DNA from: Escherichia phage Gostya9
DNA: 64,000 nt
Sequence record: NC_047979.1
Reading direction: 5' to 3' (one strand)
Shown: positions 40,442-45,167 of the stretch, piece after piece
Position numbering within the stretch: position 1 is the stretch's first letter
How the letters are laid out: each line of letters begins with the position of its first letter
Notes under the pieces: model-generated
Told to the model about the DNA's origin: nothing
What the model saw: only the letters and a program-made list of their open reading frames with translations
Database searches by the model: none
Translations under genes and position numbers: made by a program

Positions 40442-41316
40442 TGAGTAAATCCTGGGGAAAATTTATTGAAGAAGAGGAAGCTGAAATGGCTTCCCGTCGC
40501 AACCTAATGATTGTCGATGGAACTAACTTAGGCTTTCGCTTCAAACATAATAATAGTAAGAAACCATTTGCCTCAAGTTATGTTTCCACTATTCAGTCTC
40601 TGGCAAAGTCTTATTCTGCTAGAACTACAATAGTTTTAGGGGATAAGGGGAAATCTGTATTTCGTCTAGAACATCTACCAGAGTATAAAGGTAATCGTGA
40701 TGAAAAGTACGCACAACGTACGGAAGAGGAGAAAGCATTAGATGAGCAGTTCTTTGAGTATTTGAAAGATGCTTTCGAGTTGTGTGAAACTACATTCCCA
40801 ACTTTTACCATTCGTGGCGTAGAAGCAGATGATATGGCAGCTTATATTGTTAAACTCATCGGGCATTTATATGATCACGTTTGGTTGATTTCTACTGACG
40901 GTGACTGGGATACCTTATTAACTGATAAAGTTTCTCGTTTCTCTTTCACAACACGTCGTGAATACCACCTTCGTGATATGTATGAGCACCATAATGTTGA
41001 CGATGTAGAGCAGTTTATCTCTCTAAAAGCAATTATGGGTGATCTAGGGGATAATATTCGTGGTGTTGAAGGTATTGGGGCAAAACGCGGGTATAACATT
41101 ATTCGTGAATTCGGTAACGTTCTGGATATTATTGATCAGCTTCCACTGCCTGGAAAACAGAAATATATACAGAATTTAAATGCTTCGGAAGAATTGCTCT
41201 ATCGAAACTTAATTCTGGTTGATTTACCAACCTACTGTGTAGACGCTATTGCTGCTGTAGGTCAAGACGTATTAGATAAGTTTACAAAAGATATTTTGGA
41301 GATTGCAGAACAATGA
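40441..41316 (+). CDS. D15: flap endonuclease / 5'-3' exonuclease (T5 D15-like)
   Basis: N-terminal LMIVDGTNLGFRFKH and downstream acidic clusters typical of the FEN/5'-nuclease family; 291 aa. Confidence 0.85.
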   Translation: MSKSWGKFIEEEEAEMASRRNLMIVDGTNLGFRFKHNNSKKPFASSYVSTIQSLAKSYSARTTIVLGDKGKSVFRLEHLPEYKGNRDEKYAQRTEEEKALDEQFFEYLKDAFELCETTFPTFTIRGVEADDMAAYIVKLIGHLYDHVWLISTDGDWDTLLTDKVSRFSFTTRREYHLRDMYEHHNVDDVEQFISLKAIMGDLGDNIRGVEGIGAKRGYNIIREFGNVLDIIDQLPLPGKQKYIQNLNASEELLYRNLILVDLPTYCVDAIAAVGQDVLDKFTKDILEIAEQ

Positions 41317-41759
41317 TTAAAATTAAGTTAACTCATCCAGATTGTATGCCTAAGATTGGTTCCGAAGATGCCGCAGGTATGGATCTGCGAGCATTCTTTG
41401 GTACTAACCCTGCAGCGGATTTACGTGCTATTGCACCAGGCAAATCCCTAATGATTGACACCGGTGTCGCGGTAGAAATTCCGCGAGGTTGGTTCGGTTT
41501 GGTGGTTCCGCGTAGTTCTTTAGGAAAGCGCCATTTGATGATCGCAAACACCGCAGGAGTGATCGACTCAGACTATCGTGGTACTATTAAGATGAACCTT
41601 TATAACTACGGTTCTGAAATTCAAACTCTGGAGAATTTTGAAAGACTTTGCCAACTAGTGGTACTACCACATTACTCAACTCATAACTTTAAAATCGTTG
41701 ACGAACTAGGGGAGACTAATCGTGGGGAAGGCGGATTTGGAAGTTCAGGAAGTAAATAA
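41313..41759 (+). CDS. dut: dUTP pyrophosphatase
   Basis: dUTPase motifs AGMDLRA, RSSLG, GVIDSDYRG and C-terminal RGEGGFGSSG. Confidence 0.85.
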   Translation: MIKIKLTHPDCMPKIGSEDAAGMDLRAFFGTNPAADLRAIAPGKSLMIDTGVAVEIPRGWFGLVVPRSSLGKRHLMIANTAGVIDSDYRGTIKMNLYNYGSEIQTLENFERLCQLVVLPHYSTHNFKIVDELGETNRGEGGFGSSGSK

Positions 41760-41775
41760 TTTTACTGATCCTAAT

Positions 41776-41985
41776 ATGGTAGGTATTGATACTAATGTGT
41801 CAACTTATCAGACTAAAACTACTGAACCAGAAACATTTATACTAAAAACAGACAAAGAAGGTAATGTTACTTTCTGGGATCCTGAAGGTTTTGTAGAGCT
41901 TTGTACTAATACAGATAATGAGCAGTTAAAATTACTACTAACTATTTATAATCTTGGTATTATAGAAGGTTGTAGAAGAGAATAA
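41776..41985 (+). CDS. small hypothetical protein (69 aa), uncertain start
   Basis: In-frame ATG at 41776 (a GTG at 41722 is also possible); ends just before the bidirectional terminator. Confidence 0.35.
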   Translation: MVGIDTNVSTYQTKTTEPETFILKTDKEGNVTFWDPEGFVELCTNTDNEQLKLLLTIYNLGIIEGCRRE

Positions 41986-41987
41986 TA

Positions 41988-42022
41988 GAAAACCCCAGTG
42001 GACAAAATCCACTGGGGTTTTA
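41988..42022. terminator. bidirectional rho-independent terminator at the early/late convergence point
   Basis: Perfect 9-bp stem CCCCAGTGG / CCACTGGGG with 7-nt loop, flanked by GAAAA upstream and TTTTA downstream. Confidence 0.75.
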
Positions 42023-42042
42023 TTGTACTTAGCATCATAAAA

Positions 42043-42240
42043 CTATGCTAAGTTCTCTATATTAACAAGTTTATTTACAAAGGCTTTAAGTTCTTCAGCG
42101 AAGTTACCGCGACCACCCAAACCGTTACCGATCCAGGAACCAATTAAACCACCGATCGCACCACCGATACCAGCCGCACCAGCTTCACCGCCGAAACCGT
42201 CGCCACCGAGATTAGTAGGTAAAAGAGTCGTGTCAGACAT
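42043..42240 (-). CDS. small glycine-zipper protein (about 65 aa; a longer 106-aa form from ATG 42363 is possible)
   Basis: ATG at 42240 with GGAG RBS 8 nt upstream. MSDTTLLPTNLGGDGFGGEAGAAGIGGAIGGLIGSWIGNGLGGRGNF carries repeated GxxxG motifs; last minus-strand gene before the convergent terminator. Confidence 0.45.
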   Translation of the reverse strand: MSDTTLLPTNLGGDGFGGEAGAAGIGGAIGGLIGSWIGNGLGGRGNFAEELKAFVNKLVNIENLA

Positions 42241-42275
42241 AGGAAAATCTCCATATATGGATTTGTTAAGCGGAT

Positions 42276-42291
42276 GTAACCAACTGGTTAC
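42276..42291. promoter_or_regulatory. perfect 7-2-7 inverted repeat GTAACCA-AC-TGGTTAC, candidate operator
   Basis: Lies about 40 nt upstream of the small-gene ATG; a second 10-bp palindrome CCATATATGG (42251-42260) abuts the RBS. Confidence 0.35.
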
Positions 42292-42461
42292 GCTGGTAAG
42301 TATACTCGTTAACATATTATTTACCATGATATGCGTGTAAATAAATTGTAAATAGTTTGGCATTGGTACTCTTATAATGCAATGGACGTCACGACTTGAA
42401 CAAAATGAGGAAGCTATGTTTAAACGCGGTGCGGTCGCAGGTAAGGTGAGAAAGTAACAAC

Positions 42462-42486
42462 TAAAAAAGGAGCCAAACGGCTCCTT
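42462..42486 (-). terminator. rho-independent terminator after the tail-fibre gene
   Basis: Hairpin GGAGCC-GTTT-GGCTCC followed on the minus strand by TTTTTT. Confidence 0.6.
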
Positions 42487-42497
42487 AATTATTGTGG

Positions 42498-45167
42498 TTA
42501 TGGCAGATCGTTGTTAACCACATTGCCCTTCAACGCAGCTATCTCCGCTTTCAAACTATCAATTTCTGCTTTGAGCGCTTGAGTGGCACCCATCAAGTCC
42601 ATAATAATAGGGTTAGTATCAATTGAAGGTCTGTCTCGGGTCTTCTGTGAAACAATTTTCTTCTCGACTTCACGACGAATAAATTTATGTTCAATGCGTT
42701 GTTCTTTGATTTGTTCTGTAATACCAGTCTCGGGGTCGGTATGATCTACAGTAACCTCTACAGGTACATCCTCATATATATCCTTATAAACATCCTCGTA
42801 TACATCCTCATAAATCTCTTCATTGTGCTTCACATATTGTGGGGTGACTTTCTCCGATTCTTCTGCAATAATACCAAATCTTATTCTTTCTTGTTCATCG
42901 TCCTTATAAATAAAAGTGACCATGCGTTGTGCCATGATGCGGTTTAAAGCATCAATAGGATTACCGTCATTGATCTCCTTTTTATATGCTAAGCCCGATG
43001 TTCCTTGCAGTGCAAGGGTTCCGGCAGCACTCGGAAGTCTAATCCAATGCTCAGGCGAACCTGCTACGGTATATGTTTGAAATCCATAGCTCCCTACAGT
43101 TTCGCTAAACCCCACACGGTTTCGAATAACTCCATTTGCTGCTAAGTTACAAACATAAGACGCTGCACCATTGGATTTAAACGTTGCAGCGTCGGTTCCT
43201 GCGTCCCCGCCACCCGCTGTAATTCGCCCGGTAATATTGGTAGAGAACGCAATTGCAATCCCAGTACCCGCACCCCCAATGGCTAACGGAGTAGAATGAT
43301 ACGAGCCATCCTCATTGTAGTAGTAGAATGCGTAGCCCCCGCTGATAGCAAGCCCTGATCGCCATCTTACAGTAGATGGACTGGAAGGTCCGGTATAAGC
43401 TGTGTAAGCCGAACCCGGTCCCGTCGCTCTAATTAATACGCTGTCTTGACTATAACCCCCAGTTGTCCTGAGCTGACCAACTTCCCCAAATGAACTAGTC
43501 TTGTGAGCTGGTAGCGTGACTGTTTTAGCTGAAGCGCTGTAGTTAAAGACAACATTAGTGTTACCAGTATCGTTCTCCTGGAGTCGTATGTTACCGCCAT
43601 CCATAACCATAACATAGCCAGTTACATCATCTGGGGCGCCAACTTCTTCAAATTTAATTGCTGGGTTAACACTCTTGATTAAAAGAGGATTACCAGCGTT
43701 CGCCCCAAATTCTGCATTAAGGTTAAACTTCTGCTTTTTGGTAAAAGTATTTTCAGCATCAAGTTTAGCTAGGCTGGAGGGGTCCAGTGAATCCGCATAC
43801 CCTTTCGCGCGGTTAGCTTCCTCTGTTGCTAGGGTGGCTTTCTGCCCTGCGGTTGCAGCGCTGCCTGCGGCTGCTGTAGCTTGTTCCACCGCTTCGGTTG
43901 CACTAGCACCAGCTTGAGCTGCAGAAGCTGCGGCAGCGTCTTTTAGCGGGGTTATTGTATTAATTGCTTCCGTCTTAGCGGTGTTGACCGCAGCAACACC
44001 CGATGTTTTAACTGTATTAACTTCTTCGACTGCGTCGGCTTTAGCTATTGCGACTTCAGTCAACGCGGAGTCTTTAATTGCTTGAGTATCTGTTTTTAAC
44101 TGAGTAACGTCAGCTTTAAGCTGGGTAACTGTAGTTACAGCAGCACTAGCTGTGCTAGCAGATCCCGCCGCGTCAGCTTGTGCTTGGCTAGCAGCGTCTT
44201 CACTAGCTTTTGCGTTAGTTTCTGAAGTTTTTGCAGCAGTTTCTGAGTTTTTTGCTGATTCAGCATCAGCAGCAGCTTGTGTAGCGAATATTTCTGCCTC
44301 ATCCCTAAATCCTTTAGAGTCAGAAGCAGCACTAGCACTATTAGCAGCATTAATCTCAGAAGTTTTAGCCGCAGAAGCAGATGCAGCAGCATTAGTTTCT
44401 GAGATGTTTGCTGCGGAGGCCGCGGCAGCTGCAGTAGTTTCGCTAGCGTTTGCATTAGTTTCTGAAGTTTTAGCTGCCAGTTCACTAGCCTTTGCATTGG
44501 TTTCTGAAGTTTTAGCTGCGGTTTCACTATTAGCAGCCGCAGTAGCAGAAGAAGCAGACTGAGTTGCAGATTGCTGAGAAGATGCTGCAGAGATTTCCGC
44601 TTCATTTTCAGAGTCCTTAGCATTTAGCTCTGACTGCTTAGCATTAGTTTCTGATGTTTTAGCTGCTGAAGCAGAAGCAGCCGCAGCAGTTTTACTACTA
44701 TTAGCGTTGGTCTCAGAAGTTCTAGCTGCGGTTTCACTAGCTTTTGCGTTAGTTTCTGAAGTTTTAGCTGCGGTTTCACTAGCTTTTGCGTTAGTTTCTG
44801 AAGTTTTAGCTGCGATTTCACTAGCTTTTGCATTAGTTTCTGAAGTTTTAGCAGCGGTTTTACTATTGGCAGAAGCAGTAGCAGAAGAAGCAGACTGAGC
44901 TGCGGATTGCTGAGAAGATGCCGCAGAAATTTCTGCGGCATCTTCCGAATCTTTAGCATTTAGCTCTGACTGTTTTGCATTAATTTCAGATTGCTTAGCT
45001 GCTGCAGCAGATGCTCTAGAAGACCCTATTGCAGAGGTTAGCTCTCCTGCAGTAATAGAGCTAATTGTGTTTCCCAGAACTACGGTATACTTAGGGTATT
45101 TACTTGCAGTTATACTATTCTGGTCCATAGTGACCATTTGTTGTAGAATTATTTTAGTTATAGCCAT
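42498..45167 (-). CDS. ltf: L-shaped tail fibre protein (pb1-like) with tandem repeats and C-terminal intramolecular chaperone domain
   Basis: 889 aa; central Ala/Ser/Thr-rich tandem repeats (TSETNAKASE x several, plus two about 70-aa duplicated blocks); C-terminal segment (GLAYKKEINDGNPIDALNRIMAQRMVTFIYKDDEQERIRFGIIAEE ... coiled coil) resembles S74-type self-cleaving chaperone domains. ATG overlaps the upstream stop. Confidence 0.7.
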   Translation of the reverse strand: MAITKIILQQMVTMDQNSITASKYPKYTVVLGNTISSITAGELTSAIGSSRASAAAAKQSEINAKQSELNAKDSEDAAEISAASSQQSAAQSASSATASANSKTAAKTSETNAKASEIAAKTSETNAKASETAAKTSETNAKASETAARTSETNANSSKTAAAASASAAKTSETNAKQSELNAKDSENEAEISAASSQQSATQSASSATAAANSETAAKTSETNAKASELAAKTSETNANASETTAAAAASAANISETNAAASASAAKTSEINAANSASAASDSKGFRDEAEIFATQAAADAESAKNSETAAKTSETNAKASEDAASQAQADAAGSASTASAAVTTVTQLKADVTQLKTDTQAIKDSALTEVAIAKADAVEEVNTVKTSGVAAVNTAKTEAINTITPLKDAAAASAAQAGASATEAVEQATAAAGSAATAGQKATLATEEANRAKGYADSLDPSSLAKLDAENTFTKKQKFNLNAEFGANAGNPLLIKSVNPAIKFEEVGAPDDVTGYVMVMDGGNIRLQENDTGNTNVVFNYSASAKTVTLPAHKTSSFGEVGQLRTTGGYSQDSVLIRATGPGSAYTAYTGPSSPSTVRWRSGLAISGGYAFYYYNEDGSYHSTPLAIGGAGTGIAIAFSTNITGRITAGGGDAGTDAATFKSNGAASYVCNLAANGVIRNRVGFSETVGSYGFQTYTVAGSPEHWIRLPSAAGTLALQGTSGLAYKKEINDGNPIDALNRIMAQRMVTFIYKDDEQERIRFGIIAEESEKVTPQYVKHNEEIYEDVYEDVYKDIYEDVPVEVTVDHTDPETGITEQIKEQRIEHKFIRREVEKKIVSQKTRDRPSIDTNPIIMDLMGATQALKAEIDSLKAEIAALKGNVVNNDLP
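44140..44960. repeat. tandem direct repeats (about 39-42-nt units and larger duplicated blocks) inside the tail-fibre gene
   Basis: Near-identical units such as GCGGTTTCACTAGCTTTTGCGTTAGTTTCTGAAGTTTTAGCT recur at 44721, 44761 and 44801, encoding the TSETNAKASE repeats; these also generate spurious poly-Leu/poly-Ala ORFs in other frames. Confidence 0.7.

Follow-up and report, generated by a model that had tools for sequence, protein, structure and literature searches.

The window analysed here is a 64,000-nucleotide stretch of the genome of Escherichia phage Gostya9, a T5-like phage, and the locus of interest lies at the boundary between its early and late regions. The structures that an earlier note had described there were all found in the sequence, on the minus strand. 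In window coordinates, the genes and features of the locus are as follows:

41313–41759, plus strand, dUTPase gene (from the ORF list and domain search)
41722–41985, plus strand, ORF with a DUF7369 domain (from the ORF list and domain search)
41989–42021, no strand assigned, resident T5-type bidirectional terminator (strong hairpin; T5 annotation)
42043–42240, minus strand, chimeric ORF of 65 aa, Gostya9 gp075 (HOT33_gp075; from the ORF list and protein identity)
42043–42095, minus strand, codons 49–65 of gp075 and its stop (EELKAFVNKLVNIENLA, then stop), relic of the 3′ end of the resident T5-type ltf gene
42096–42240, minus strand, codons 1–48 of gp075 (MSDTTLLPTNLGG...GRGNFA), phrog_9288-type 5′ end with the MSDMTLLPT motif and glycine zipper
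42249–42252, minus strand, Shine-Dalgarno sequence GGAG, 8 nt before the ATG
42251–42260, minus strand, 10-bp palindrome CCATATATGG, overlapping the GGAG ribosome-binding site (RBS)
42276–42291, minus strand, leader stem-loop, a 7-2-7 repeat (GTAACCA-AC-TGGTTAC; GUAACC-AGUU-GGUUAC on the sense strand)
42299–42326, minus strand, promoter-like region with a -10 box TATACT (42304–42299) and a weak -35 box TGGTAA (42326–42321)
42467–42486, minus strand, terminator hairpin 3′ of the tail-fibre gene, which arrived with the Seuratvirus block
42498–45167, minus strand, mosaic lateral tail-fibre gene of 889 aa, with a T5-type N-terminus and a Seuratvirus-type distal part
42096–44199, minus strand, Seuratvirus-derived block of ~2.1 kb, with ~95% identity to Seuratvirus phages

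The small ORF does stand alone between the tail-fibre terminator and the bidirectional terminator, being flanked by the hairpins at 42467–42486 and 41989–42021. The counterpart of the latter is annotated in T5 as an 'efficient bidirectional rho-independent transcription terminator', and a transcript of the small ORF would end there. Both of the lengths proposed earlier, 65 and 106 aa, can be read from the minus-strand frame at 42043–42363, the longer from the far ATG at 42363 and the shorter from the ATG at 42240. The 65-aa start is preferred because the ATG at 42240 has an RBS in front of it, and the upstream extension does not stay in frame in phage HK6 and is missing from the other family members; the 106-aa form was accordingly rejected. 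The 65-aa protein shows 100% identity to 'hypothetical protein HOT33_gp075 [Escherichia phage Gostya9]' (P0001). Counting bore out the description of its core as glycine-rich and built on GxxxG repeats, with 26% Gly and seven GxxxG motifs.

Profile comparison assigned the first part of this ORF to the phrog_9288 protein family: gp075 matches the family profile in hmmscan with E=5e-19 over positions 1–46 of 234 only, and profile positions 47–234 have no match in it. Codons 1–48 were aligned with 17 full-length family members, and the 48 N-terminal residues share 94% protein identity with Seuratvirus copies. As in phrog_9288, the MSDMTLLPT motif is followed by the zipper pattern ..GGEAGAAG[IL]GGA[IV]GGLIGSW[FI]GNG.., and the placement of the ORF is also that of the family, namely after a lateral tail-fibre gene, behind a terminator, and with its own -10 box and leader stem-loop. 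In Seuratvirus, a gp075-like start (MSDMTLLPTNLGGDGFGG...) opens a frame of 235 codons directly after the side tail-fibre gene; SLUR75 (VAY27924.1) has it intact, and in Skure it is broken by an in-frame TAG. JenK1 (YP_009219305.1) and damhaus (QHR69938.1) likewise have, behind the side tail-fibre gene, a gene of 235 aa that begins with this N-terminus, so that the post-fibre position is kept in a Nonagvirus (JenK1) and in a member of the Drexlerviridae (damhaus), where three more small genes follow. Carriers of phrog_9288 belong to Seuratvirus, Nonagvirus, Sashavirus, Hanrivervirus and other siphophages, and their proteins are uncharacterised and 231–238 aa long. A full-length query returned 169 homologues, and among the 120 matches listed nearly all are 223–270 aa; in viral contigs, 29 of 30 copies are 231–238 aa. 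The full-length protein P0008 covers profile positions 1–233 (E=3e-130).

Full-length members, of about 231–238 aa, combine the N-terminal motif and glycine zipper with a Q/N-rich segment, a long helix carrying a CCCETN motif, and a C-terminal tail KLPTPPTPPTGCC (KLPTPPTPP(T)GCC). In comparison with the proteins of SLUR75, JenK1 and damhaus, gp075 shares the 48 N-terminal residues, the RBS, the leader hairpin, the -10 box, the fibre terminator, and the post-fibre position, but it lacks residues ~50–235, including the Q/N-rich segment, the CCCETN helix, and the KLPTPPTPPTGCC end, and in their place has a C-terminus of 17 foreign residues from ltf. Judged by these alignments, gp075 is a fragment rather than a complete member of phrog_9288. 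The earlier picture of a stand-alone small protein that evolved for the T5 early/late junction was therefore abandoned, since gp075 consists of phrog_9288 positions 1–46 joined to the 3′ end of ltf, and its full-length homologues of 231–238 aa identify it as a piece of a larger gene. The glycine-zipper stretch itself is a truly conserved protein module; it is its status as a stand-alone small gene that falls. Thus, gp075 is a truncated, chimeric member of a catalogued but uncharacterised family.

Neither the 65-aa ORF nor full-length members had significant matches in Pfam, NCBIfam, or PADLOC, a PDB profile search with the parent family gave no relatives (E>0.5), and a literature search returned nothing on the gp075 ORF or on the phrog_9288 family. 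An AF2 model of the full-length protein, built from 44 sequences, has a mean pLDDT of 54, rising to 65–81 over residues 161–220, and at this low confidence it comprises a disordered N-terminus and one helix (residues 87–221) that carries the CCCETN motif. Towards the N-terminus it has only a short helix, at residues 24–33 and likewise of low confidence. Holins and other small lysis proteins of the membrane have at least one clear transmembrane helix and belong to a lysis cassette; in the ORF list of the window, gp075 is not adjacent to lysis genes. Our guess is that the parent could be an accessory protein of coiled-coil type, associated with the membrane and produced from a host-type promoter.

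The last 17 codons of gp075 have a different origin. In MET_P1_100_107, a Tequintavirus, the L-shaped tail-fibre gene ltf ends in ...EVEELKVLVNKLINTDNLA and a stop at the homologous place, where Gostya9 has EELKAFVNKLVNIENLA and a stop; when EELKAFVNKLVNIENLA is set against EELKVLVNKLINTDNLA of MET_P1_100_107, the last codons and the stop align, and the spacer, terminator, and downstream DNA are alike. The 3′ end of gp075 thus has the position and sequence of a T5-type Ltf/pb1 C-terminus, that is, of the end of an ltf gene immediately before the bidirectional terminator. The junction GCTG|AAGAAC falls at ~42095/42096, with ~2 nt of microhomology: T5-type DNA identity extends to position 42097 of the window, and in a three-way alignment of Gostya9, HK6, and Skure, identity with Skure ends at ...AACTTCGCTG / ...GGTAACTTCGCTG, past which Gostya9 and HK6 read AAGAACTTAAAG...TAG, the 3′ end of ltf. 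Because the two homology tracts abut at ~42095/42096, codons 1–48 were assigned to the donor and codons 49–65 with the stop to an ltf relic.

On its other side, the donor tract runs deep into the tail-fibre gene. Identity to the 59-kb Seuratvirus phages Skure, SLUR25, and SLUR63 is ~94% over window positions 42113–42520, and over 42113–44199 it reaches 94.8% for Skure and 95.6% for both SLUR25 and SLUR63; the sequence becomes T5-type again near 44337. In an alignment that included Skure and HK6, the block could be traced on to 42096, beyond an 18-nt indel. The block contains the distal ~565 fibre codons with the Peptidase_S74 chaperone domain, the terminator (a hairpin also present at the equivalent spot in Skure and HK6 in the DNA alignment), the promoter, the leader, and the first 48 phrog_9288 codons. 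Among 50,697 phage records, HK6, a Tequintavirus, is the sole one that spans the whole region. T5 and most of its relatives match only as far as the bidirectional terminator; ltf of T5 ends directly at that terminator, with no small gene there. The ORF is not conserved across T5-like genomes, being absent from T5 and most relatives, and the junction is common to HK6 only.

Exchange of lateral tail-fibre modules has been described in T5-like phages and small siphophages, where this locus is very variable (PMC8594841, PMC10644984). In agreement with the mosaics described for DT57C (LtfA/LtfB), in the BASEL collection (PMC8594841), and in a comparison with BF23 (PMC10644984), the distal part of the Gostya9 fibre was swapped while the N-terminal attachment part remained T5-type, and this is the most variable locus of such genomes. 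Gostya9 differs from these cases in that its swap also took the start of the donor's next gene, leaving an open chimeric ORF. The fibre mosaic is a classic lateral-fibre module swap, and the small ORF is collateral to it.

These observations lead to the explanation that gp075 is a by-product of tail-fibre module exchange, a recombination scar and not a dedicated toxin or lysis gene, to which a probability of about 0.8 is given. An ancestor of Gostya9 and HK6 exchanged the distal part of its L-shaped tail-fibre gene for a ~2.1-kb cassette from a Seuratvirus-like siphophage. In such donors, a terminator comes after the fibre gene, and beyond it lies a phrog_9288 gene of 231–238 aa with a promoter of its own. 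The downstream crossover fell inside the phrog_9288 gene, after codon 48, by illegitimate recombination at ~2 nt of microhomology, so that the start of that gene continues in frame into the final 17 codons of the former ltf. The resulting 65-aa chimera kept the donor's promoter, leader stem-loop, RBS, and start codon, with ~80% of the parent protein lost.

Leader sequences from 29 distinct loci were compared, taken from Seuratvirus, Nonagvirus, Sashavirus-like phages, Hanrivervirus, other T1-like phages, and Epseptimavirus, and were aligned. The -10 box aligns across genera (TATACT, TATGCT, TAGAAT, CATACT) at a constant 6–7 nt from the hairpin, and in Gostya9 it sits 7 nt upstream of the stem-loop; a promoter scan of Gostya9 also gives TTTACA-16-TAATAT at 42341–42314. 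Some relatives have a near-consensus promoter, TTGTCA-16-TAGAAT, with the predicted start at the foot of the stem. The earlier suggestion of dedicated control is consistent with this aligned promoter-like region, which the ORF has to itself.

The perfect 7-2-7 inverted repeat proved to be a real and conserved cis element, with compensatory changes in four phage groups. A 5-bp stem is found in constant register in 27 of the 29 distinct leaders, and pairing is seen in 99.3% of its alignment cells but in no more than 54% once the partner is shifted along. Two stem pairs have compensatory A-U to G-C double changes, the variants being GTAAC/GTTAC, GTAGC/GCTAC, and GTGGC/GCCAC, and the Hanrivervirus form GTAAC/GTTGC gives a U.G wobble on the sense strand only. 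The loop varies freely, being inverted in HK6 relative to Gostya9. RNAalifold independently recovers this helix and no other, and the helix is also present in the minimum free energy (MFE) fold. The thermodynamic z-score of the leader is unremarkable (-1.29), so the case for the hairpin rests on covariation, and it is this conservation with covariation that makes the repeat more than a chance occurrence. No Rfam family matches the leader; the only matches, below threshold, fall on the bidirectional terminator (His_leader, 34 vs 49 bits) and were taken as hairpin noise. Most likely, the repeat forms a stem-loop that sits at the predicted mRNA 5′ end, or close to it, and acts as a stabilising hairpin, an RNA structure being favoured because the U.G wobbles are on the sense strand; possibly, it is instead a symmetric protein operator. 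In either case, it was brought in by the donor cassette and does not represent an early/late switch of T5. Stem-loops of the ompA type at mRNA 5′ ends were reported to stabilise transcripts by Emory, Bouvet and Belasco in 1992. The element described here resembles them in being a short hairpin 6–7 nt after the -10 box, near the predicted transcript 5′ end; its stem is conserved and its loop free, and a stabilising effect in gp075 is putative.

The second symmetrical element fared differently. The 10-bp palindrome at the RBS is present, at 42251–42260, but its frequency is at chance level, with 60 perfect 10-bp palindromes in the window and 77 +/- 8 in shuffled sequences. In the window, pairing between this palindrome and the start-codon region is possible. 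Only near-identical leaders of the Seuratvirus type retain CCATATATGG, which is absent from those of Nonagvirus, Hanrivervirus, and Epseptimavirus. Since it is both at chance level and confined to Seuratvirus-type leaders, no meaning was attached to it.

Disrupted copies of phrog_9288 are common elsewhere. In KurtStettler, a fibre gene is fused to a phrog_9288-type gene, which accounts for the 'chaperone' annotation given there; in T1-like contigs, the N-terminus has become linked by in-frame deletions to the last part of the cluster's fourth gene; and in Epseptimaviruses, a decayed pseudogene with an in-frame TAG occupies the same slot as in Gostya9. Frameshifts and many short truncated alleles were found in addition. 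Alleles that retain the N-terminus only are represented by Gostya9 and HK6, Epseptimavirus (109 aa), T1-like phages (92–99 aa, at least 22 contigs), and several metagenomic clusters. This array of broken alleles points to a dispensable accessory gene with a breakpoint-prone tract of glycine codons.

Whether the remnant has been under constraint since the fusion was addressed by comparing Gostya9 with HK6. Promoter-like boxes, hairpin, RBS, and ATG are intact in both phages. The HK6 copy shares the junction and has a 1-nt deletion that gives it a different and shorter tail, for a total of 54 aa. M4, a residue invariant in the family, is replaced in all three T5-like truncated lineages (Gostya9 has T, HK6 has L, and Epseptimavirus has R), and HK6 also has S35F and a replacement of G27, with invariance judged on 44 full-length proteins. 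Over the first 49 codons, pN/pS between Gostya9 and HK6 is 0.19 (11 synonymous and 6 nonsynonymous differences), with a range of 0.14–0.27. This could reflect purifying selection after truncation or, equally, inheritance from functional donors; because the Gostya9 block is closer to Seuratvirus (95.6% to SLUR25) than to HK6 (92.3%), the low ratio was not read as proof of function, and much of the divergence between the two phages may date from functional donor genes and have been followed by homologous exchange. Near-invariant N-terminal sites are violated in 11 of 164 cases in truncated alleles and in 34 of 881 in independent full-length ones, so truncated alleles do not stand clearly above full-length ones. 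Neither pN/pS nor the invariant-site counts separated relaxed from retained constraint. On balance, the gp075 peptide is somewhat more probably without a selected function, and continued selection on it is a tentative possibility. Transcription of the remnant, and its translation into a short glycine-zipper peptide, may nevertheless continue.

The main competing explanation holds that truncated gp075 is a functional, autonomous glycine-zipper membrane peptide, kept by selection for exclusion, lysis timing, or toxicity. The undamaged ORF and signals in both carriers and the pN/pS of 0.14–0.27 are what this would predict, as are the independent origins of the N-terminal-only alleles listed above and the in-frame state of three of the fusions; moreover, the uncharged stretch AGAAGIGGAIGGLIGSWIG resembles membrane glycine zippers and weakly matches PF13488 (E=0.097). 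However, the tails of the sole two carriers differ by a frameshift, family-invariant residues have changed (M4 in all three T5-like lineages, S35 and G27 in HK6), and the low pN/pS could have been established before the transfer. On the Kyte-Doolittle scale, the highest-scoring 19-residue window reaches only 1.27, borderline and below the 1.6 usual for a transmembrane helix. Most T5-like phages have no such ORF. Retention of the 5′ end is expected without selection, because deletions must spare the essential fibre gene upstream and the repetitive GGT/GGC tract is a likely hot spot for breakpoints. This competing explanation is considered unlikely. The same evidence bears on a narrower version, in which a zipper module of ~45 residues is autonomous and membrane-active and, retained with its promoter and hairpin, makes gp075 a working mini-protein, for instance in exclusion or depolarisation. 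Recurrent N-terminal-only alleles could reflect selection for such a module instead of a deletion hot spot, and the module, if real, would explain their recurrence in several T1-like lineages as well as in Tequintavirus and Epseptimavirus; we regard this version as distinctly improbable. When the 49-aa module was used in an exhaustive HMMER search, 10 cluster representatives were returned, all belonging to this one phage family, so other architectures do not contain the module. Of the earlier proposal of a lysis, superinfection-exclusion, or toxin factor under dedicated control, the promoter-like region thus survives and the dedicated small factor does not, a truncated chimera standing in its place, for which any of these roles is unlikely.

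Likeness to known glycine-rich proteins does not alter this assessment. With PF13488, the hydrophobic segments of tape-measure proteins, and class II microcins such as MccV, gp075 has in common a repeated GxxxG/A spacing and an uncharged stretch of Gly, Ala, Ile, and Leu. Its match to PF13488 (Gly-zipper_Omp), at 13.1 bits, is below the 25-bit gathering threshold, and the likeness is one of composition only. Double-glycine leaders are 15–25 residues long, end in GG or GA, and are hydrophobic at positions -4, -7, and -12 and acidic at -8. A peptide of this kind, processed and exported like a class II microcin, was suggested by the Gly/Ala-rich composition of gp075 and by its 13-residue N-terminus ending in GG; against the consensus, that N-terminus is too short and has N at -4 and L at -8, so that only -7 fits. 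The NLGG motif exists, yet NLGG(D) is an indel of a Seuratvirus-type subset and is absent from most homologues, which read MSDMTLLPTGGFGGEAG, and a leader role was not upheld. In a Pfam search to E<=10, no bacteriocin or microcin family was found, the only matches being PF13488 and PF20721 (E=3). The neighbours, in HK6 as in Gostya9, are the dUTPase gene, the DUF7369 ORF, and the S74 tail fibre; neither an immunity gene nor a C39-peptidase ABC exporter is among them, and the parent is a protein of 235 aa with a long predicted helix and not a peptide precursor. The microcin-like reading was rejected on these grounds and is almost certainly wrong. Alternatively, the cis elements alone might matter, the imported terminator, promoter, and hairpin serving to insulate or stabilise fibre expression or to yield a short noncoding transcript. 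Conservation of the terminator at 42467–42486 and of the leader hairpin with the donor suits this proposal, which is also compatible with the fibre-swap explanation. In contrast, T5 and most relatives express ltf without these imported elements, and the hairpin lies downstream of the fibre terminator and is therefore outside the fibre mRNA, leaving this a very remote prospect.

With gp075 explained as a scar of fibre exchange, a candidate toxin or lysis gene is removed from consideration, and the locus illustrates that a fibre swap can leave behind an ORF that is open, well signalled, and probably vestigial, a caution for the annotation of small phage proteins. The analysis also draws attention to phrog_9288 as a widespread, uncharacterised and frequently disrupted family that accompanies the lateral tail-fibre genes of at least five phage groups, and whose leader contains a small covarying stem-loop absent from Rfam.

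Three hairpins around the phrog_9288-type gene, which lies next to the lateral tail-fibre gene (ltf), differ between Gostya9 and a close relative by an exact inversion of the loop. The loop of the bidirectional terminator (41989-42021) reads CAAAA in Gostya9 and TTTTG in the Tequintavirus HK6, that of the leader hairpin (42276-42291) reads AC versus GT in the same pair, and that of the fibre-gene terminator (42467-42486, plus strand) is AAAC in Gostya9 and GTTT in the Seuratvirus Skure. Read from sequence, these differences are small inversions with the stems on both sides.

The leader also carries, upstream of its -35 region, a direct repeat of TTTACA-like hexamers (spacing 11-13 nt) that is kept in the leaders of Seuratvirus, Nonagvirus, Hanrivervirus, and Epseptimavirus. 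A second promoter, an UP-like element, and a regulator site are all possible explanations for it.

Window 42336-42352, minus strand: TTTACA-N5-TTTACA, found at the same place in loci L006-L010 and L015-L017

On the dUTPase (dut) side, the stretch over the bidirectional terminator (41929-42026, plus strand) gave a sub-threshold Rfam match to His_leader (34.4 bits versus a gathering score of 49), most likely no more than a strong hairpin followed by a T-run. An 87-aa DUF7369 ORF (T5.132 homologue, phrog_5592), conserved across T5-like phages, is located at 41722-41985 (plus strand) and shares 38 nt with the dut 3′ end in a different frame.

The phrog_9288 gene itself is interrupted in several phages. 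In Skure, codon 83 has changed from CAG to an in-frame TAG (L002:3880-3882) within a 235-codon gene that is otherwise intact and is annotated as two separate ORFs; the TAG could reflect either an amber mutation or an error in sequencing. Three Epseptimavirus phages have a second, more divergent copy at the corresponding position, with ltf on one side and the dut-side terminator on the other.

L006:4794-5342: second phrog_9288 copy, vaffelhjerte
L090:1294-2000: second phrog_9288 copy, MET_P1-88
L091:1294-2000: second phrog_9288 copy, S147

An in-frame TAG after ...NAITQ is common to all three; what sets them apart are truncations or frameshifts in the vicinity of a poly-A run close to the CCCETN motif. 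This copy is decayed; its N-terminal ORF, 109 aa long, has the annotation "hypothetical protein".

Elsewhere, the gene has been fused or shortened in frame.

L005:3520-5052: bas22_0024 (510 aa, "putative lateral tail fiber chaperone"), Escherichia phage KurtStettler
L092-L094:4001-4279: in-frame deletion alleles of the phrog_9288 gene (proteins P0006, P0007, and P0131), T1-like contigs

KurtStettler bas22_0024 is a deletion fusion in which a piece of the distal fibre, bearing a Peptidase_S74 domain, is joined to the phrog_9288 protein from residue 19 on, and its chaperone annotation covers the S74 part only. The T1-like contigs (~49 kb) carry at least three different in-frame deletions, through which the accessory cluster is lost; in the products, the N-terminal 59-75 residues encoded by the gene are followed directly by the final residues of the cluster's fourth gene (phrog_7239, ...ELAKRIAVKVIAVLG...). 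Since the short alleles P0128, P0129, P0133, and P0134 break directly after the GNG[WF]GG tract, there are hints that the glycine-codon repeats are a breakpoint hot spot.

A Seuratvirus-derived block (42096-44199), recognised by sequence identity, makes up the distal two-thirds of the lateral tail-fibre gene in Gostya9, and T5-type sequence returns from 44337 onward, within Ala/Ser/Thr-rich shaft repeats. This block is nearer to Seuratvirus (95.6% identity with SLUR25 and SLUR63) than to HK6 (92.3%), suggesting that exchange took place more than once.
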